The notes: generated by a model not told the origin, from the letters alone. Positions 47,525 to 55,910 are shown, counted from the first letter of the stretch. The stretch is DNA of 64,000 nt from Bacilli bacterium (GCA_045628045.1 JAZQOV010000003.1:57495-121494), one strand, 5' to 3'. Numbers and translations are program-made.

Positions 47525-47557
47525 GAAAAAATCGGCTATAAGCCGATTTTCTTTTTG
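47525..47557 (+). terminator. Rho-independent terminator
   Basis: AAATCGGCT-ATA-AGCCGATTT followed by TCTTTTT. Confidence 0.75.
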
Positions 47558-47590
47558 ACTAATGTCTTTAGTGGACTGAAATAATACATT

Positions 47591-47626
47591 TTAATTGCAT
47601 ATTTTTCACGAATTTTATGCAATTAA
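47591..47626. repeat. 36-bp palindromic element (IR-L) TTAATTGCAT-N16-ATGCAATTAA overlapping the Fic 3' end
   Basis: Perfect 10-bp inverted arms, nearly identical (one substitution) to the copy at 48701-48736. Confidence 0.6.
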
Positions 47627-48663
47627 ATTTTGTAATATTTAGCGTATTTGCCACTCTGAATCATTTGAATTTTTAATGAATCAGTTAACTCTTTTAATGA
47701 TTTTTCAATTGTGGTTCTAGATAAATTAATTAAAACTTCCTCAATTTCAGCTTTTGTTATAGGTAGTTTTGAATCATTAATAACTTTAAGCACCTTATCG
47801 TTTGCAACACCACTCATGTTGTTGGTTTCAATAATATATGCGAGTTTTTCATAACCTTCCTTGAGACATTTGAGCATAAAATGGGTAAAGAATGCATAAT
47901 CATTTTTGTCTTCATGCCAACCTATTGATGATTTTTCTAAGGTTTCATAGTATTCATTCACGTTGCTTAAAATAACATACGACAAAGAATAATATTGATC
48001 TAATTCATAACCATACTTTAGCAAAAGGAATGTTGTTAATAATCTAGAAATGCGGCCATTGCCATCATAAAAAGGGTGAATACATAAAAAATCAGTAATA
48101 AAGACAAAGATTGTTAATAATTTGTTACAATCTGGATCTTTCATGCATTCGTTAAATTGATAGACAAGGTTTCCCATTAAATCATCAACCTCTTCTGGTT
48201 TTGAAGGGATAAAGACTGTTCTAACCAAATTTCCTTTTGAATCAAACTCTCTAATATAGTTTTGTTCAACCTTGTATTTACCGCCAAATTCTGGAGTAAT
48301 TGATTGATATAAAAAGTAATGTAAATCCTTAATGTAAGACTCAGAAAGAGATTGATATTTGTAAACTTGAAATACATTCTCTAATGCATTGTTGTAGCCT
48401 AGCAAGAAATATTCTTCTTTGGTTTCAGGGTCCATATGTTTTAGCAAAATATCATTTTCTCTATATTTTTCAACTTTAATGCCCTCAATTTCATTTGAAC
48501 TAGTTACACTTCTTCTTTTATTTAAATCATGTAAACGGTTCAATTTAATCTTTGACGGTAAATTAAAAGTTTTGCCTCTATTAACCTCAACTGATTGGAT
48601 CATTGAAATTATCAGCGGATCATTTAGTTTTAACACTTGTTCTTTAAGATTTATGAATTTCAT
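47623..48663 (-). CDS. Fic-family protein (AMPylation-type motif)
   Basis: HPFYDGNGRISRLL canonical Fic motif; 346 aa from ATG 48663. TTGACT-17-TATTAT lies directly upstream of the ATG, suggesting a leaderless transcript. Confidence 0.75.
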   Translation of the reverse strand: MKFINLKEQVLKLNDPLIISMIQSVEVNRGKTFNLPSKIKLNRLHDLNKRRSVTSSNEIEGIKVEKYRENDILLKHMDPETKEEYFLLGYNNALENVFQVYKYQSLSESYIKDLHYFLYQSITPEFGGKYKVEQNYIREFDSKGNLVRTVFIPSKPEEVDDLMGNLVYQFNECMKDPDCNKLLTIFVFITDFLCIHPFYDGNGRISRLLTTFLLLKYGYELDQYYSLSYVILSNVNEYYETLEKSSIGWHEDKNDYAFFTHFMLKCLKEGYEKLAYIIETNNMSGVANDKVLKVINDSKLPITKAEIEEVLINLSRTTIEKSLKELTDSLKIQMIQSGKYAKYYKI

Positions 48664-48669
48664 GTCTAT

Positions 48670-48736
48670 ATAATAATATAGCCAAAAATCTGAGTCAAGT
48701 TTAATTGCATATTTTTCGCGAATTTTATGCAATTAA
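48670..48736 (-). promoter_or_regulatory. Leaderless-type promoter (TTGACT-17-TATTAT) plus upstream palindromic IR-R operator-like element for the Fic gene
   Basis: The -10 ends 6 nt before the ATG. The 36-bp palindrome at 48701-48736 sits just upstream of the -35. Confidence 0.45.
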
Positions 48737-48943
48737 AAATTTTAAATAAAATAAAATCCCTCCTTCTTTTGCCTCAATCTTAGGCAAAATTTTGGGGGAG
48801 GAGTTTCAATTGCGATGGCAAAGGTGAATAGAAATGATACAATGATACCTCTTCCCAGGAGAAAAACGCGACATAATCCTGAATTCAGCCAGTTTAGTAC
48901 CCTGTTCTACCTTACGAATCGGTAAAACATACGCTTCCTCCAA

Positions 48944-49543
48944 TCAGTCCAACGTAGGCAGAACACGGAACCTGAACACGCATGGTTTCCGCCCCTCGGT
49001 ATCGTGGGGAGAAGATACGATTTCCATCAGTTCAAGCTTCACATTCAACATGATCTCATAGTGAAACTTGAAATGCCCTCCACAGCAATAGCAGTATTCG
49101 CGAGGAATGGCATATTCCAGCTTCACCTTGCTGACCGTTGGGCAAACGCATTGATACTTTCCATCCGCGTAAACGCTCGCGCCCGTGACGATGATATCGC
49201 CGTTTTCGTCAAGATGTGCCTGCCCCATGTAAAGCTCAGGTTTTTTGCTGATAAGTGCAAGCTTTTCTTCCAATGTAAGATCTGCATTTTCTTTTGCGAA
49301 GGATTTCGACGCTTTTTCTCTGGTACCGCACTTGCAGCAGGCATTGGCTTCGAAAATTTTCTGTACACGCTCCCGAGGAAGCCTTTCATTCATCACATCA
49401 AGTGCCCGCTTAAAAAAGGCGGATTTGATTTTCTTGTTCGTCTTGGAAACAATCCCGTCAAAGCCCTGATATATTTCATCAATAATATCCTGACTGACCC
49501 TAAAATCGTCTAAAGTTTTTCTGAATTTTTCCGGTGATGCCAT
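48944..49543 (-). CDS. Cysteine-rich hypothetical protein encoded in a GC-rich (horizontally acquired) segment
   Basis: 199 aa with Cys clusters CCKCG, CVCP and CYCCGGH. Local GC is about 48-50%. Upstream near-palindrome GGTAACCT-N9-AGGTTATC. Confidence 0.4.
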   Translation of the reverse strand: MASPEKFRKTLDDFRVSQDIIDEIYQGFDGIVSKTNKKIKSAFFKRALDVMNERLPRERVQKIFEANACCKCGTREKASKSFAKENADLTLEEKLALISKKPELYMGQAHLDENGDIIVTGASVYADGKYQCVCPTVSKVKLEYAIPREYCYCCGGHFKFHYEIMLNVKLELMEIVSSPHDTEGRKPCVFRFRVLPTLD

Positions 49544-50000
49544 ACTGTTATTCCTCCTGACTATGATAGAGTTAAAAATACAAGGTAACCTCTAATAATT
49601 AGGTTATCAATTAAATTTTATCGGTTTTCGTGTTTTTTGAACAGCAAATTCCAAAACCGAGATCATTGAGTGTTAATATTATTAATAAGCGCTAATAGTC
49701 CAAGTGAGCGCTATTAAGATTTAACTGATTTTCAGTTGTTTAAAATAAACGACTAAATGCTAGTCTCAATTGCGAAAAACCTATAAAAAATTCAATTAAA
49801 TAAAGAAAAAGGCTGATTTTATCGTTTCCGATTGTATCAACCTTATTCTACTTTGATGTCTTTCGTGGACTGAAATAATACGGATTCCCAACATTGGACT
49901 GAAATAATACAAATTTTCGCCATTTTTGTGTGTTTACAAATATTTTTTTAATTTTATTTTTAGATAATCTATTAGGGTTCGAACTCTAATAGTTAAGCAA

Positions 50001-50936
50001 TTACAACGAGAAAAATGCTTTTTTAAGTAAAAAGTCTTTTACCTTATTATTTTTTGATTCATAGAATTCTACTAATAACAATTTGTATTCTTTATCTAAA
50101 TTATCTGGAACTGAGATATATCCAAGACCATGACTAATTAAATAGGTATTTGCAAATATAAGAGCAGTTCTTTTATTACCGTTACTAAAAACTTTAGTTT
50201 TTACAAGATAACAAAGCAAATCAATTGCTTTTGCAACGTCATCATTTTTACTATTTAAAATTTGATTAATATTTTGAATAACTCTTTCTTTTGTAGGAAT
50301 TTCAGGTCTATACGAGCAGCCTCCAATAATTACATTGGTTGTTCTAATTTGATCTGGATAAGAAATTTGTCGATCATTAACATATCCTGCAATCGTGCAA
50401 AGTACATCAAAGGTTGTTCCTCTCCTAACTGTGTCTTCATCAAGAACGTATTGCCAAGCATTTTTTAAATTTAAAATTGTTAATGTATCATCAAAACTAA
50501 CATTTTTAGAAGAACCCTTTTCCAAGATTTCTTCTGTATCTAAAAACGTAGCACTTACCCCTTCAACTATTGCTTGACCGTAAATTATCGTATTTAAGTT
50601 ATTTCTTACAAAATCTAAATTTATTAAAACTTTAGAATCAAGATCATTTATGTTTACACCAAGTTTAGCTAGTTTTGTTTTAACACTGCGTAATTTGAAA
50701 TTTAATTCTTTTACACTTTTTGTTAATTCTTTTAAATCATTATAGAAAGATTCAGTGTAAACTCCAGCATATTTAGAAGATAAACGATCATATTTCTTAT
50801 ATCTAAGATATATATATTTCTTTCCGCTAATTTCTTTTACTTCTGGATAACCTTTAAAATTAATTTCTTTTAATTGAAATTCTAGATCTTTCTTTTGAGT
50901 AAGAAGTTCATTAACTAAATCATTACTATTTCTCAT
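50001..50936 (-). CDS. Fic/Doc-family protein with a degenerate Doc-like motif (KVFSNGNKRTA; catalytic His absent)
   Basis: The C-terminal NGNKRTALIFAN resembles Doc HxFx(D/N)GNKR, but the His is Lys; 311 aa. Confidence 0.5.
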   Translation of the reverse strand: MRNSNDLVNELLTQKKDLEFQLKEINFKGYPEVKEISGKKYIYLRYKKYDRLSSKYAGVYTESFYNDLKELTKSVKELNFKLRSVKTKLAKLGVNINDLDSKVLINLDFVRNNLNTIIYGQAIVEGVSATFLDTEEILEKGSSKNVSFDDTLTILNLKNAWQYVLDEDTVRRGTTFDVLCTIAGYVNDRQISYPDQIRTTNVIIGGCSYRPEIPTKERVIQNINQILNSKNDDVAKAIDLLCYLVKTKVFSNGNKRTALIFANTYLISHGLGYISVPDNLDKEYKLLLVEFYESKNNKVKDFLLKKAFFSL

Positions 50937-50937
50937 T

Positions 50938-51055
50938 TAGGGTGATTTCTCCTTACTTATATTATACTATTTTCTCCCTAAAAGTAAAGAACTATTTAGG
51001 GTGATTTTCATCATTTCTAATTCTATCATTTTCTCCCTAAAAATCAATCTTTTGA
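50938..51055. repeat. Two imperfect tandem repeats of about 58 bp upstream of the Doc-like gene
   Basis: TAGGGTGATTT...TTTTCTCCCTAAAAGT appears twice (50938 and 50996). Confidence 0.5.
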
Positions 51056-51141
51056 CGTTTTATAAGAAATAAAAAAATCAGCATAATACCGATTTCTTTA
51101 AGTTTATGTTTAACTCGTCTAATTTGGACGGGGCAACATTC

Positions 51142-51230
51142 TGGCGGAGAGATAGGGATTCGAACCCTAGGTAGGCAAGGCCTACAACGGTTTTCAAGAC
51201 CGCCGCTTTCGACCGCTCAGCCATCTCTCC
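51142..51230 (-). tRNA. tRNA-Ser (UGA)
   Basis: GGAGAGATGGCTGAGCGGTCGAAAGC...CTTGAAA...long variable arm...GGTTCGAATCC...CTCTCCGCCA. Confidence 0.8.
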
Positions 51231-51236
51231 ATTATT

Positions 51237-51311
51237 TGGTGGACCCAGTAGATCCTGACACTACAACATATCGGTTATGGGCCGAGTGCTCTTCCTTTGA
51301 GCTATGGGTCC
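51237..51311 (-). tRNA. tRNA with CAU anticodon (Ile2/lysidine-type by similarity) and a non-canonical T-loop
   Basis: GGACCCATAGCTCAAAGGAAGAGCACTCGGCCCATAACCGAT...GTAG-TGTCAGGAT-CTAC-TGGGTCCACCA. Acceptor and anticodon arms are fine. The T-loop lacks TTC, so this may be a pseudo-tRNA or a variant. Confidence 0.5.
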
Positions 51312-51392: not shown

Positions 51393-54300
51393 TTAATCAC
51401 CAAATAAACTTCTGAAGAAATCTGCAATTGCATCAAAAATCTTTTTAAAGAATGCGACAATTGCGTTTTCTTCCTTCTTTTCTGGTTCTGGATCTGGTGT
51501 TGGATCAGGAGTTGGACCAGCATTATCTTTTACAGTAATTGTTGCAGTAGCAGTTTTTGCTCCATCAACAGTTGTCACTGTGACTGTTGCTTCACCTGCA
51601 CCAACAGCAGTAACAACACCATTATTTACAGTTACAACACTTTCATTACTTGATGCCCAAGTAACTGCATTATTAGTTGCATTATTTGGAGTAACTGTTG
51701 CAATAAGAGTGTAAGTTTCACCTTTATTCAAAGTAACACTTGTGTTACTTAAACTAACTGAAGTTACAGGAACGTCTGTTGAAGTTGCATTAACTGTAAT
51801 TGAACATGTTGCAGTTAATCCACCATCAGCTGCTGTTACGGTAATAACACAATCACCACTAGCGATTGCTGTTACATTACCATTTTGATCAACTGTTGCA
51901 ACACCTACATTACTTGATGAATAGGAAACATTTTTAATTGTTGCATCATTTGGAGCAATTGTTGGAGTTAATTTAAATGTGTCATTAACTTCAAGTTCCT
52001 TTGAGGTAATATCAAGAGTGATTCCAGTAACATGAACAACTGGAGCCTCTTTAACTGTTACAACACATGTATCGAAATTATCTTCTGGTTTATTTTGTGC
52101 TGCGCAAGTGATTGTAGCAGTTCCTGGTTTAATACCAGTAACAACACCTTTATCATCAACAATTGCAACCGATTCATCACTTGAAGTATAGGTTACTTTA
52201 GTGTTTGATGCATTAGCTGGAAGTACAGTTGCTGTTAATGCATGTGTGCAACCAGCGTTTACTTCAAATGAATGTTCACTTAATGTTACTGATTCAACTT
52301 GAAGATAAATCCTAATATGTTCAAAATCACTATAAGTGCCATCAAAAGATGTAGCAATGACATCAACATAACCTGGAGCAAGTCCAGTTACATTTCCGTT
52401 TTGATCAATTGATGCAAGAGTTGGATCTGAAACTGACCAAACAAGAGGTTCTCCTTCTGGAACTTCGTAATGATCATTTAGATGTGCTTGGTAAGTTTCT
52501 CCAACAAGAATTGGATCTTTACAAACAACATCAAATGCTTGAGTTTTTCCTTTTACAAAAATGGAGAATTCTTTAATGATTTGATGTCCGTTTTGACCAT
52601 AACCAATCTTTCCAACTGCAGTTCCGATCTTTGAAGTATCTGGCATTTCAATTATTGAATAGCCACCAACAGGAACAATTTTTGAAGCTCCGCCAGAGTA
52701 GTTAGCTTTAACAATTAATGCTGAAGTCCATGGGAATTGTTCACCGACAGTAACTTCATCCATTCCTTCATAGAAGGAAACTGATAATGATTGAACTTCA
52801 CTTTGTAATGGTTTTTCGTTGTTTCTAAAAAGCATAATTGGAGTATAGCTGCTTCCTTTTGCATAGAAACCAAATTTACCATCCTTATTAAAGTAAAGTT
52901 GTTTATCTTGATGAGGTTTGCTTGAAACAACCCATTCTTCATAATCTTCATCATAAGATAATGTAAATAAGCATTCATCTGGTAATGTTGAAGAAGTTTC
53001 AAGTGCGTATTGGAAAACGTCATTTGTAAATGACCAATAAGCAACTTTAACTTCTGCAGTTGTTGTTCCTGCATAACCATCTGCTGCTGTATAAAGTGTG
53101 AATGTAAATTTATTATTTTCTAAATCTGAAATACCAACAATGTAGTCAGTGTAACCACTAATATAATCCATTGAACTAAAGACATTAGCATAGCTAAAGT
53201 CTGGACTTGTTGATGTTTTCATAGTGACAACGTAGCTTGATCCACCAATTGTAACTGGCATGTTAAATTCATAGTGACCATCGCCAGCATCATAAATTGA
53301 TTTTGTGTCTGGTTTATTAAAGCCAAGTGTTGAATTGTCACCTTTTAAGAAATAACCTGTGTCCTTGTCTTTAAGTGTGTAATAACTACCTTCTTTTCCG
53401 ACTTCTAAAACCACATCACCTTTTGGCATATAACCAAAGTTAGAATAGACAAATCTTGTATCATCATAAGAAAGCTCAGTTCCACCAGTGATTTCGTATG
53501 GATTATAACCAAGAGTTCCAATAACAATCTCATCACCTACGCCAACATAGTTAGCAGCAACATAAGGACTTTCTTTAACTTCTATTGATTTTTCGTAGTA
53601 AACAGTAGGATCTTTTGCTAAAGCAATTCTTACTTTAGTTGTGGTTTCTTCGATTCTTTCTGGAGTTACTACATAATCATCTTTTGTAAGAGTTTTTGGA
53701 ATGTCTTCTTCACCAGGAAGTTTGTATGTAATTTGAACTGATAAATAATTTTTATTTATCTTTTCACCAACAGCGTATGTATCTGTTAATCCACTAATAA
53801 CAAATGTTGAGGCATCACCTTTATAAACTTGGATACCATTCATTTCAATATTTCTTAGAGAACCACCAATTTCGACTGTTCCATAAGCTTTTGTACCAGC
53901 CACTAATGTGCTCCAAGTGATTCTATTAGTTATGTCAACCTTTGCACCGTTATCAAATAAAGCATTAACTTTTGAATTAAGTGGATTTAATGTATCTCCA
54001 ACAAAGTATTGTTTCTTTGTAGGTAATTTTTCAATTTCAAAACCAGTGTAAGCACCAACTTTCATTAATTTAATGTGATCTTGAGTTCCTGTTGCTCCAC
54101 TATAAGCAAACCAAGTTCCTGTGGATGCACCTGGATTACATGAAAGGGTGTTTCCGGTTACGCTATAAGCGAACGTAAATGAGTCATCATCATTCTTTGT
54201 AACAATCCAATATTTTGAACTATCACTTGATAAATCAAGTGAAGAGTTCTTAATTGATGGATTGTGGAATAAATAATTTGAACCATTGCTAATTGAATAG

Positions 54301-55910
54301 GTGTCTCCGTCAGCTCCAGTATTTGTGATTGTCCACATCTTTGTTGTATCAGTGTAATCTGGGGTTGAAACATCTTCCAAATCAACATTTAAAACATGCG
54401 ATCCGCTAAAGTCAGTAATAAAATATTCACCATTTTCAATAAGAGCATCTTTTTTAGCAATTACTGTAACAACGCAAGTAGCAACTAAATCATCGTTTCC
54501 ATTTGCTTTTACAGTGACGGTTGTTGAACCAGCTTTTAATCCTTTAACAACTACGCTTGAACCGATCGCACTTCCTTCAATAGAAAGAACTTGAGAATCT
54601 CCAACAGCCCATAAATAAGAAGTAGCTGTAAATCCTTTAGTTTCACTTATAAGTGAAATTGAAGAACCTTCTATAACTGAGGCGGTTGCTGGAACGCTAA
54701 TCTTTTCAGCGCCACTTGAGTACTTATAAATTGATGTTTCTGAAACACCTGATGATGCTTTGTAAGCTCTAAATGTATTTACGTTATAACGTAAATAAAC
54801 ATAAGAATCATAAGCTTGGTTTGCAATATTTGATTTGATATTTAATGAAGCAGCTCCAAGGTCCACTGTCCATGAAGACGCAGCGTCCTTTGTATCAACA
54901 AATTTTAAGCCATCTTTATCAATTGCATATGTTGATAAATATTTGCCCGATGCATTTTTAAATGCATAGGTTCCATTAATTGAACCGGCTTCAACTGTAT
55001 AAACACCAACTTCATCAGTCGATAAAACATTAACTTGATTATTTGAAATTGAGACACTTGTTGTATCTAGATAGTGTTTATATGCAACATCTGCAGTTGT
55101 TAATGTTGCTTTTGCTGCCTTAGATGCGCTGTCATTTACAAACAAAATTTGATCACCAACTTCAATTGATGATGCTTTTGTATAAACTGTTGGCTTTTCA
55201 CCTTGAGTTACAGACACTGTAAATGTTGTCGTAACATCTTCACCACTAGTGGTGGTTGGAGTGTTACTCGCTTTATAAGTAACTGTAACAACTTGTGGTC
55301 CAACTGTATTTAAAATGGTTCCTTCTGCAGGTGAAAATTCGCATTTTGATGCAACATTATACGTTTCTTCATTGCTTAATGTTGCGATAACTTTGACACC
55401 ACTATAAGAAATTGCAGTTCCGGTTTGCACAGCCTTTGGAGCTGATTCGACTGCTAAAGAAGATACGGTTCCATCAGAAACAGCAAATGTCACAGTAATC
55501 GAATTAAATCTCACTTGTTTTGACATCGTGTGTGACCAAGTAAAATCATTAACTCCACTTACACCATTTACTAAAGAGGATTCAGAATAGGAAGAATTCA
55601 TGTCAAAGGCAATGCTGCCAATCTTGTAGTTCTTTGAACTAATAGTGAGTTTTTTGCCACTATAAACACGTAAAACACCATTTGTGGCATAGCCACCAGT
55701 AGTTGAAACTGTTACATCATTGCTAGTGTAAGAAAATGACGATCCACTTCCACCATTCGATGAACCTTTATCTGCAAAAGAATTAAAGGTAACAGAATTA
55801 GAATCTTCAGCTTTAACTTCGCAAACTGTTTTATTAACGAAAACACTTGGAACTGCGAGCAATCCACCAAGTAATGCTAATGCAAATAATTTGATTTTAT
55901 TTCTTTTCAT
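51393..55910 (-). CDS. Very large secreted surface protein with multiple bacterial Ig-like (Big_2) domains
   Basis: Signal peptide, then 1505 aa. The C-terminal third contains tandem Big_2-like units (VTGIKPGTATITC, GDCVITVTAADGG...), followed by a PTPDPTPDPEPE linker and a short hydrophobic tail. Confidence 0.7.
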   Translation of the reverse strand: MKRNKIKLFALALLGGLLAVPSVFVNKTVCEVKAEDSNSVTFNSFADKGSSNGGSGSSFSYTSNDVTVSTTGGYATNGVLRVYSGKKLTISSKNYKIGSIAFDMNSSYSESSLVNGVSGVNDFTWSHTMSKQVRFNSITVTFAVSDGTVSSLAVESAPKAVQTGTAISYSGVKVIATLSNEETYNVASKCEFSPAEGTILNTVGPQVVTVTYKASNTPTTTSGEDVTTTFTVSVTQGEKPTVYTKASSIEVGDQILFVNDSASKAAKATLTTADVAYKHYLDTTSVSISNNQVNVLSTDEVGVYTVEAGSINGTYAFKNASGKYLSTYAIDKDGLKFVDTKDAASSWTVDLGAASLNIKSNIANQAYDSYVYLRYNVNTFRAYKASSGVSETSIYKYSSGAEKISVPATASVIEGSSISLISETKGFTATSYLWAVGDSQVLSIEGSAIGSSVVVKGLKAGSTTVTVKANGNDDLVATCVVTVIAKKDALIENGEYFITDFSGSHVLNVDLEDVSTPDYTDTTKMWTITNTGADGDTYSISNGSNYLFHNPSIKNSSLDLSSDSSKYWIVTKNDDDSFTFAYSVTGNTLSCNPGASTGTWFAYSGATGTQDHIKLMKVGAYTGFEIEKLPTKKQYFVGDTLNPLNSKVNALFDNGAKVDITNRITWSTLVAGTKAYGTVEIGGSLRNIEMNGIQVYKGDASTFVISGLTDTYAVGEKINKNYLSVQITYKLPGEEDIPKTLTKDDYVVTPERIEETTTKVRIALAKDPTVYYEKSIEVKESPYVAANYVGVGDEIVIGTLGYNPYEITGGTELSYDDTRFVYSNFGYMPKGDVVLEVGKEGSYYTLKDKDTGYFLKGDNSTLGFNKPDTKSIYDAGDGHYEFNMPVTIGGSSYVVTMKTSTSPDFSYANVFSSMDYISGYTDYIVGISDLENNKFTFTLYTAADGYAGTTTAEVKVAYWSFTNDVFQYALETSSTLPDECLFTLSYDEDYEEWVVSSKPHQDKQLYFNKDGKFGFYAKGSSYTPIMLFRNNEKPLQSEVQSLSVSFYEGMDEVTVGEQFPWTSALIVKANYSGGASKIVPVGGYSIIEMPDTSKIGTAVGKIGYGQNGHQIIKEFSIFVKGKTQAFDVVCKDPILVGETYQAHLNDHYEVPEGEPLVWSVSDPTLASIDQNGNVTGLAPGYVDVIATSFDGTYSDFEHIRIYLQVESVTLSEHSFEVNAGCTHALTATVLPANASNTKVTYTSSDESVAIVDDKGVVTGIKPGTATITCAAQNKPEDNFDTCVVTVKEAPVVHVTGITLDITSKELEVNDTFKLTPTIAPNDATIKNVSYSSSNVGVATVDQNGNVTAIASGDCVITVTAADGGLTATCSITVNATSTDVPVTSVSLSNTSVTLNKGETYTLIATVTPNNATNNAVTWASSNESVVTVNNGVVTAVGAGEATVTVTTVDGAKTATATITVKDNAGPTPDPTPDPEPEKKEENAIVAFFKKIFDAIADFFRSLFGD

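Follow-up and report, generated by a model that had tools for sequence, protein, structure and literature searches.

A small strain-variable island at a tRNA-Ser gene of a Bacilli bacterium joins two Fic-family modules and recently acquired Clostridial DNA

Class II Fic AMPylases of the SoFic type act as single-gene anti-phage defence systems (PADLOC SoFic, PDB 8UQU); in E. coli the wild-type SoFic is toxic and is accompanied by a small downstream antitoxin, AS1 (PMC12249575). Cis-mobilizable elements (CIMEs) accrete in tandem at tRNA genes (PMC5704250, citing Pavlovic 2004), and mobile insertion cassettes (MICs; MIC231 etc., PMC4337579) consist of passenger DNA that lies between short terminal inverted repeats and lacks a transposase gene. 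Here we describe the region at 47.56-51.14 kb of a 64-kb stretch from a Bacilli bacterium (GCA_045628045.1 JAZQOV010000003.1:57495-121494), the whole of which we call the window. The region joins known kinds of element: a SoFic-type defence gene, a degenerate Doc-like gene, a CIME-like accretion at a tRNA gene and a MIC-like insert. It is a small strain-variable island at tRNA-Ser, made of two self-contained Fic-family modules and recently acquired Clostridial DNA. A first-pass annotation of this DNA had instead joined the Fic gene and a neighbouring gene for a Cys-rich protein into one cassette inserted between 25-bp direct repeats.

The island is anchored at tRNA-Ser(UGA) (51142-51230, minus strand, written - below). 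Every island gene lies on the minus strand, and the order is read from high to low coordinates, from the tRNAs to a convergent gene encoding a CBAH-like lipoprotein. We favour, with a probability of about 0.6, the view that a micro-island arose here, 3' of tRNA-Ser(UGA), by tandem accretion of small recombinase-less modules. Counted from the tRNA, module 1 would comprise T1, two operator-promoter units, a Doc-like gene without the catalytic His, a tRNA-like hairpin and the repeat pair A'A. A 1,037-bp inverted-repeat cassette with a 0.7-kb Clostridial patch (the Cys-rich gene and a GNAT stump) would come second, and module 3 would comprise a spacer denoted T*, the palindrome PAL2, a leaderless promoter, a SoFic-type fic gene, the palindrome PAL1 and A. 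The sequence T would be the shared proximal part of modules 1 and 3 and A'A their shared distal termini, and the modules would behave as CIMEs that use an integrase encoded elsewhere. T1, the 86 nt directly 3' of tRNA-Ser (51056-51141, -), is the candidate att core and is copied at each module junction of the related loci L086 and L090.

At the tRNA-Ser site, the module content of other genomes varies: one Fic module, two, or Doc plus Fic. In the nearest genome, the Candidatus Fiminaster equi metagenome-assembled genome (L012, here equi), whose CBAH protein is 85-87% identical to that of the window, the order is tRNA-Ser, a spacer of ~65 nt, PAL2, fic, PAL1, A'-A, CBAH, with neither the Doc-like nor the Cys-rich gene. 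L086 reads tRNA-Ser, T1, operator units, Doc-like gene, hairpin, A'-A, T2, x, PAL2, fic, and its Doc-like protein is 96% identical in amino acids to that of the window; L090 reads fic, PAL1, A'-A, T, x, PAL2, fic, PAL1, A'-A, CBAH. Between the window and L086, tRNA-Ser is 68% identical; at the first base 3' of it the identity steps up and stays high through the Doc-like gene (T1 94%, operator units 96%, Doc-like gene 94%). The window and L090 share 98% of Fic amino acids (94% of nucleotides), as against 58% for the flanking CBAH protein and 70% for a DUF2804 protein; like the units of CIMEs, those of the island are conserved more strongly than the host DNA on either side. Fic homologues with 75-89% identity lie beside tRNA-Ser(GCU) in L091, beside tRNA-His in L093/L094 and in another context in L101. 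At a further locus, L088 (5532-7073; also L089), a 1.5-kb insert after rplQ consists of two divergently oriented genes, one Phd/YefM-like and one Doc-like with 68% identity; a perfect 27-nt duplication of the rplQ terminator flanks it.

These arrays account for the direct repeats. The repeat TGTCTTT(A/C)GTGGACTGAAATAATAC is present where the first-pass annotation had placed it, with full copies at 47563-47587 and 49857-49881 and a third, 17-nt copy at 49894-49910; three such matches were equalled in 0 of 100 shuffles, and no further copy occurs in the 64 kb. On alignment to the related loci, the repeats are the shared distal termini (A'A) of the Doc-like and Fic modules and not the ends of a Fic and Cys-rich cassette. 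In equi the A'A pair stands beside fic without the Cys-rich gene, so the repeats cannot be scars of a joint insertion, and in L086 and L090 they stand at the end of each module. The comparative-genomics check that had been suggested to find the cassette elsewhere returned the repeats as module ends, and the Fic and Cys-rich unit was not seen in these loci. All module ends (six of six) finish in GTATTATTTC(A/T)GTCCACGAAAGACAT and diverge immediately beyond. The 3' terminus of the Doc-like module keeps A2 (49856-49881) and A3/A' (49885-49910; together 49856-49910, -), and that of the Fic module is A1 (47562-47587, -), a collapsed single copy of the A'-A pair that lacks 29 nt relative to equi and L090, a deletion between the two 16-nt repeats A' and A.

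The block A'-A / T / x, ~190 nt long, is conserved in L086 and L090, where different genes precede it. Element x corresponds to a degenerate Doc-type operator unit, and T1 and T2 of L086 are 68-nt direct copies with 92.6% identity; in the window the position of T2 is displaced by the insert. Comparison with the L086 and L090 arrays indicates that the stretch from A1 to A2 represents a single period of an array of two units, to which an insert has been added. Repeats seen in a single sequence are easily misread as cassette ends, and a few related loci show the module termini, the att-like junction and the operator. Reading the window sequence after A2 as a degenerate T was not significant (255 of 1000 shuffles scored equally). 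A viral scan with a 15-mer of the A repeat gave 59 matches, all of them single and without a second copy, and these we took as chance.

As in CIMEs (PMC5704250), the units are integrase-less, lie at a tRNA 3' end, share repeated junctions and vary in number and kind. Direct att-type repeats at the tRNA hot spot are present as T1/T2 in L086 and as A'A|T in L086 and L090, and a Pfam search of 11 neighbouring ORFs (41.4-47.5 and 51.4-61.5 kb) and the three island proteins gave no integrase or transposase, in agreement with the earlier description of a mobile, modular region without an encoded recombinase. The units differ from CIMEs in being tiny (1.1-1.3 kb, one gene each) and in that the repeated core lies just after the tRNA rather than inside it; no cognate integrase or integrative and conjugative element was found. 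We know of no description of very small one-gene modules with a common att-like junction, although no targeted literature search was made. By analogy the A'A|T junction would be attP-like, with T as the core and A' and A as direct-repeat arm-type sites. A more elaborate version, which we regard as improbable, takes A'A-T-x as the attP of one-gene, integrase-less Fic satellite cassettes that borrow a tRNA-Ser-specific integrase from elsewhere and stack like a miniature integron, combined with self-repression of SoFic through two bracketing operators, possibly by looping.

Several observations weigh against tandem accretion of mobile modules. No integrase, empty attB site or circular junction was seen in the material compared, and the relatives are metagenome assemblies throughout, including equi, L086 and L090. 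T3, the sequence at the far end of the island, reproduces T only in part, in the window as in equi, and the tRNA-like remnant lies inside module 1 and not at a module junction. The tandem fic copies of L090 (1-354 and 357-2733) are 97.5% identical, with differences confined to the first 168 and last 100 nt, and their identical central stretch of ~770 nt suggests gene conversion or an assembly effect. Moreover, arrays of this kind can also be obtained by unequal crossing-over and homologous replacement.

The last point leads to a recombinase-free origin, which we consider less likely but a serious rival: an unequal-crossover duplication would have been followed by homologous recombination between T and A'A that swapped the inner gene, and foreign DNA would have entered by illegitimate recombination. 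Such an origin fits the failure to find a recombinase nearby, the partial T3, the 29-nt repeat-mediated deletion that formed A1, and the near-identity of the L090 fic copies, which suggests ongoing gene conversion. It does not explain the identity step exactly at the tRNA 3' end together with the presence of the same modules in hosts whose flanks are 58-70% identical; these two findings require inter-lineage transfer into the same site. Homologous modules also occur at three different tRNA genes, the Doc-like module at rplQ is flanked by its perfect 27-nt duplication, and the A'-A direct repeats beside the core resemble integrase arm-type sites. We therefore return to accretion of mobile modules. 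Stacked, integrase-less one-gene modules at tRNA-Ser would offer a route by which defence and toxin genes pass among uncultured gut Bacilli that share little else. In L090 the first fic copy has an unrelated partial ORF fused to it at its -10 region, indicating that the locus acquires foreign DNA repeatedly.

In the window, recently acquired DNA lies in an insert between the two modules. It spans 1,037 bp (48819-49855, -), is absent from equi, L086 and L090, and carries 25-nt imperfect inverted repeats at its ends (48819-48843 and 49831-49855; pattern CAAAG..GAATA....TGATACAAT). Window positions 48744-49855 stand in place of 123 nt of L086. They begin with T* (48744-48818, -), the old tRNA-proximal spacer with a terminator hairpin, which is homologous to the sequence after tRNA-Ser in L091 and equi; alignment to these two sets the left limit of window-specific DNA at 48818/48819, and the right limit is 49855/49856. 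The inverted repeats match at 19 of 25 positions and their outer ends fall on both homology breakpoints; as good a result came from none of 5000 shuffles and from 3 of 5000 random pairs of real sequence. Inside lies a Clostridial patch of 696 bp (48848-49543, -), 85% identical to gut Clostridia contigs and with sharp breakpoints at both ends, one at the ATG of the Cys-rich gene and the other ~33 codons into the next gene. The 5' remnant of this next Clostridial gene, GNAT-like, frameshifted and truncated (48848-48943, -), is contained in a 45-aa ORF (48806-48943). The Cys-rich gene itself (48944-49543, -) encodes 199 aa and is preceded by a 287-nt AT-rich leader with an AGGAGG Shine-Dalgarno sequence (49544-49830, -) that had no match and is not significantly structured (z -0.78).

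The foreign origin proposed earlier for the GC-rich gene is borne out by the match of the patch to Clostridia and by composition, GC3 being 51.5% against 14-28% in the neighbouring genes. The gene also contains the GC maximum of the window (0.463 versus a mean of 0.328, sd 0.034), and its overall GC of 45.5% is slightly below the ~50% given at first. An assembly chimera would give the same foreign composition, and the closest DNA matches are indeed gut metagenome assemblies. We nevertheless hold this explanation to be very improbable: native sequence flanks the insert left and right in a single contig, the breakpoints are sharp at single-base resolution, the AT-rich leader and its Shine-Dalgarno sequence are joined at the ATG, the inverted repeats sit at both insert ends, and an identity of just 85% to the sampled Clostridia is not a verbatim read-in.

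By analogy the insert resembles a MIC, with passenger DNA, short terminal inverted repeats and no transposase gene, and the Cys-rich passenger would have landed exactly at the A|T junction. Unlike MICs, it is single-copy, and its chimeric passenger joins an AT-rich leader to Clostridial DNA. The analogy is further weakened by an inverted repeat that does not recur in the window or the compared loci, the failure to find a cognate insertion sequence, and a doubtful target duplication, a possible 3-nt one (ATG) being offset by 1 nt.

A confident structural model of the 199-aa protein, the check proposed by the first-pass annotation, matched the H-NOX/V4R/Bet3 fold, so that an H-NOX/V4R/Bet3-like structure is predicted. 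There is no sequence similarity to these families, and no Pfam or NCBIfam model matched; an invariant CC...C.C...C.CC...C pattern with a His cluster suggests a metal site atypical of H-NOX. Clostridia have more than 200 homologues; in the contexts examined these sit among MarR / 301-aa / X / GNAT / APH and never beside Fic. The gene has a dN/dS of 0.14. By eye, the protein differs from its closest Clostridial homologue (L002) at ~28 residues in the first 100 but at 4 in the last 100; this N-terminal clustering may reflect a mosaic donor or uneven constraint.

Is the Cys-rich protein a modulator or immunity partner that neutralises Fic, as had been suggested for a joint cassette? The 25-bp repeats do bracket both genes in the window, and E. 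coli SoFic with its downstream AS1 (PMC12249575) demonstrates that such Fic partners exist. Yet equi has the A'A pair beside fic, and L086 has the Doc-like gene, A'A and fic, both without the Cys-rich gene; the Cys-rich DNA is an insert of its own with its own inverted repeats; its many Clostridial homologues do not adjoin Fic in the contexts examined; and the predicted fold is H-NOX/V4R/Bet3-like. Fic1, the product of the fic gene in the window, has its own inhibitory helix motif acting in cis, S-xxx-E-G, so nothing points to the Cys-rich protein in this role. The joint cassette with a Cys-rich modulator is thus hardly credible, and we infer from these comparisons that the Cys-rich gene is an unrelated passenger and not a Fic partner.

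Fic1 (47623-48663, -; Pfam Fic 2.6e-14) is the canonical Fic protein reported earlier, a SoFic-type class II Fic of 346 aa with a C-terminal winged-helix-like tail. It belongs to the same length class as the known SoFic proteins and has the same architecture, as far as can be read from its sequence: an HPFxDGNGRxxR active site, an N-terminal S-xxx-E-G and a C-terminal winged-helix-like domain. The active-site motif HxFx(D/E)GNGRxxR reads H196-P-F-Y-D-G-N-G-R-I-S-R207, and its positions are invariant in an alignment of six lineages, save I/V at 205 and a variable 199. The N-terminal inhibitory motif (S/T)xxxE(G/N) reads S56-N-E-I-E60-G61 and is invariant across lineages, as is the C-terminal winged-helix-like segment with its putative recognition helix and wing. 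The PADLOC SoFic model matched Fic1 at 6.7e-37 (residues 47-344) and PDB 8UQU at 4.7e-38, solved relatives being ~30% identical; the NCBIfam SoFic equivalog model NF046030 gave 39.7 bits against a cut-off of 550. Fic1 is thus, by these matches, of SoFic architecture but not the equivalog. A pN/pS of 0.03-0.04 indicates strong purifying selection. Unlike SoFic, Fic1 has no AS1-like downstream gene, and its promoter is probably leaderless. A 28-aa ORF (47536-47622, -) that runs through PAL1 and A1 was considered as an AS1-like antitoxin and rejected: it has no Shine-Dalgarno sequence, is 19 aa long in equi and is not conserved, and is probably not a gene.

Two 36-bp palindromes, TTAATTGCAT-N16-ATGCAATTAA, bracket fic, one substitution apart as first described. 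PAL1 (47591-47626) overlaps the Fic stop codon, and PAL2 (48701-48736), the probable operator, ends 2 nt before the -35 box of the Fic1 promoter TTGACT-17-TATTAT (48670-48698, -), whose -10 box lies 6 nt before the ATG. The promoter had been said to abut the ATG and to suggest a leaderless mRNA. The uniform length of the Fic family, 346 aa, and a 6-nt gap between -10 box and ATG, kept in six loci with no Shine-Dalgarno sequence, make it probable, from the alignment, that the fic mRNA is leaderless. No further PAL copy occurs within the 64-kb window. Start to start, the two PAL copies around fic are exactly 1110 nt apart in each of five cases (the window, equi, L090, L093/L094 and L101); L091 has an intact upstream PAL and a half-decayed downstream one. 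Such bracketing of a SoFic-type gene is not described in PMC12249575; no literature search was aimed at it. PAL copies of L093/L094 are identical to each other, spacer included, and differ from those of the window at 9 of 35 positions, which indicates concerted evolution of the copies. To our knowledge a conserved operator that brackets a SoFic-type gene has not been described, with the limit that no targeted literature search was made.

The PAL core, TGCAT-N16/17-ATGCA, recurs upstream of phage-borne homologues that are only 33-37% identical (L105/L106 and L131). Each has, in the 110 nt that precede the ATG, a pair of TGCAT-N17-ATGCA palindromes (L105 2254-2355; L131 2268-2356), where we estimate a chance expectation of ~0.002 sites, and in L131 one palindrome of the pair is placed after the -35 box TTGACA and before the Shine-Dalgarno sequence, a classic operator position. 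Since PAL travels with fic and its core recurs upstream of distant homologues, PAL is probably the operator of this Fic subfamily, as the first-pass annotation had supposed. Fic is the sole protein that always accompanies PAL. The best reading of these patterns would be autorepression through PAL by the predicted binding of Fic's own C-terminal winged-helix segment, which is plausible given that wild-type SoFic is toxic (PMC12249575): the winged-helix domain of a dimeric Fic would bind PAL and hold a toxic AMPylase tightly repressed. The TGCAT-N16/17-ATGCA site offers a concrete hypothesis for the silencing of toxic SoFic-type defence enzymes, and the operator reading suggests a role for the SoFic C-terminal winged-helix domain.

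An operator role alone does not suffice to explain why PAL1 and PAL2 have identical spacers within a lineage (L093). Alternatively, PAL might be a recombination or mobility site that delimits the fic cassette, comparable to attC-like hairpins, phage promoter-stem-loop shuffling sites or IS200/IS605-type ends. The concerted evolution of the copies would suit this, as would their position exactly at both ends of a conserved block that occurs at different loci and the 12-bp hairpin that PAL can form as single-stranded DNA (-8.8 kcal/mol, z -4.4); distant fic genes are likewise bracketed by direct repeats. In the distant homologues, however, both palindromes lie upstream of the gene, one of them in the operator position described above; in L093/L094 one arm change is uncompensated, and the L093 hairpin is weaker (-5.6 kcal/mol); no HUH/Y1 transposase or IntI gene is near. 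A scan of metagenomes for the PAL arms gave 14 palindromes, unrelated and differently spaced, but neither an exact PAL nor a Fiminaster-type locus. We therefore doubt that PAL is a mobility site and keep the operator reading. An integron-type site in particular was rejected, there being no IntI nearby, no GTTRRRY-type core and promoter positions in the distant homologues.

Palindromes of the form TTAATTGCATCA...TGATGCAATTAA, unrelated to PAL, were seen in metagenome contigs L076, L084, L085 and L078, with extra ATGATGCA(A/T)TTAA half-sites nearby in the first three; they may be a separate operator family with the same arm. On viral contigs, distant SoFic-like genes are bracketed by direct repeats (L105 2090-3586, L114 678-2028, L115 2325-3675). 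In L105 the 3' end of the 533-aa ORF that precedes fic is repeated beyond fic as a 163-nt copy (87%), and in L114 and L115 the bracketing repeats are 70 nt long. It seems that fic genes recur as discrete insertions with duplicated target ends.

The other module encodes a Doc-like, Fic-fold protein of 311 aa (50001-50936, -) with the motif K-V-F-S-N-G-N-K-R, in which the catalytic His is indeed absent, as noted earlier. The position, which aligns with His363 of FICD, is Lys in the window copy and Gln in the other 22 family members, among them the 96%-identical relative. The family consists of ~310-aa proteins of gut Bacilli with a Doc-type loop, G-N-K-R. Like Doc of phd/doc, the protein has a Fic fold and an F-x-N/D-G-N-K-R loop, and at L088/L089, the distant locus described above and the only place where this was seen, a Phd/YefM-like gene is its neighbour; like the class II Fic protein FICD, it has an alpha-inh-like segment, the invariant Q-A-x-x-E-G of the family aligning with the inhibitory T-V-A-I-E-G. 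Unlike Doc, it lacks the catalytic His family-wide and has an extra N-terminal domain of ~110 aa. The Doc model TIGR01550 gave 26.2 bits, below its cut-off of 38.65, and there is no Phd-type antitoxin gene in the window, no ORF being present between 50936 and tRNA-Ser. Its pN/pS is 0.08, which indicates strong purifying selection; the protein is conserved but probably does not work as a Doc-type kinase. A His-less, Doc-like family under strong purifying selection is a candidate pseudo-enzyme.

Upstream of the Doc-like gene lie two operator-promoter units of ~59 nt each (50937-51055, -). Both share an inverted box, TTTAGGG(A/T)GA-N-TCACCCTAA, which brackets the -10 box, and the proximal unit also holds the Shine-Dalgarno sequence. 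In phd/doc, too, the operator region consists of two palindromes. The units correspond to the two 58-bp tandem repeats of the first-pass annotation; both are there, although they have diverged, measure ~59 nt and are not called by TRF. A double operator, TTAGGGTGA...TCACCCTAA, stands upstream of the Doc-like gene of L088 as it does here. At the other end of the gene, a hairpin (49973-50008, -) that overlaps the stop codon resembles tRNA-Ser positions 41-78 (0 of 1000 shuffles reach the alignment score) and may be an old att remnant.

On its low-coordinate side the island is closed by T3 (47528-47550), a bidirectional terminator hairpin after the CBAH-like lipoprotein gene that resembles the terminator half of T. 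Rfam found two tRNAs in the region and nothing else; besides tRNA-Ser there is a tRNA with a CAU anticodon loop directly upstream of it (51240-51311, -), which was detected by Rfam only (43 bits) and is absent from the ARAGORN output. BLAST of 47.5-51.1 kb against plasmids and phages gave zero matches, as did exact-protein look-ups of four proteins, the three of the island and the flanking CBAH-like one. Adjoining the tRNAs, a 1505-aa surface protein with Big_2 repeats (51393-55910, -) has no detectable similarity to its 1547-aa counterpart in equi (L012 2965-7608); by contrast, the CBAH protein across the island is conserved between the two genomes at the 85-87% given above.

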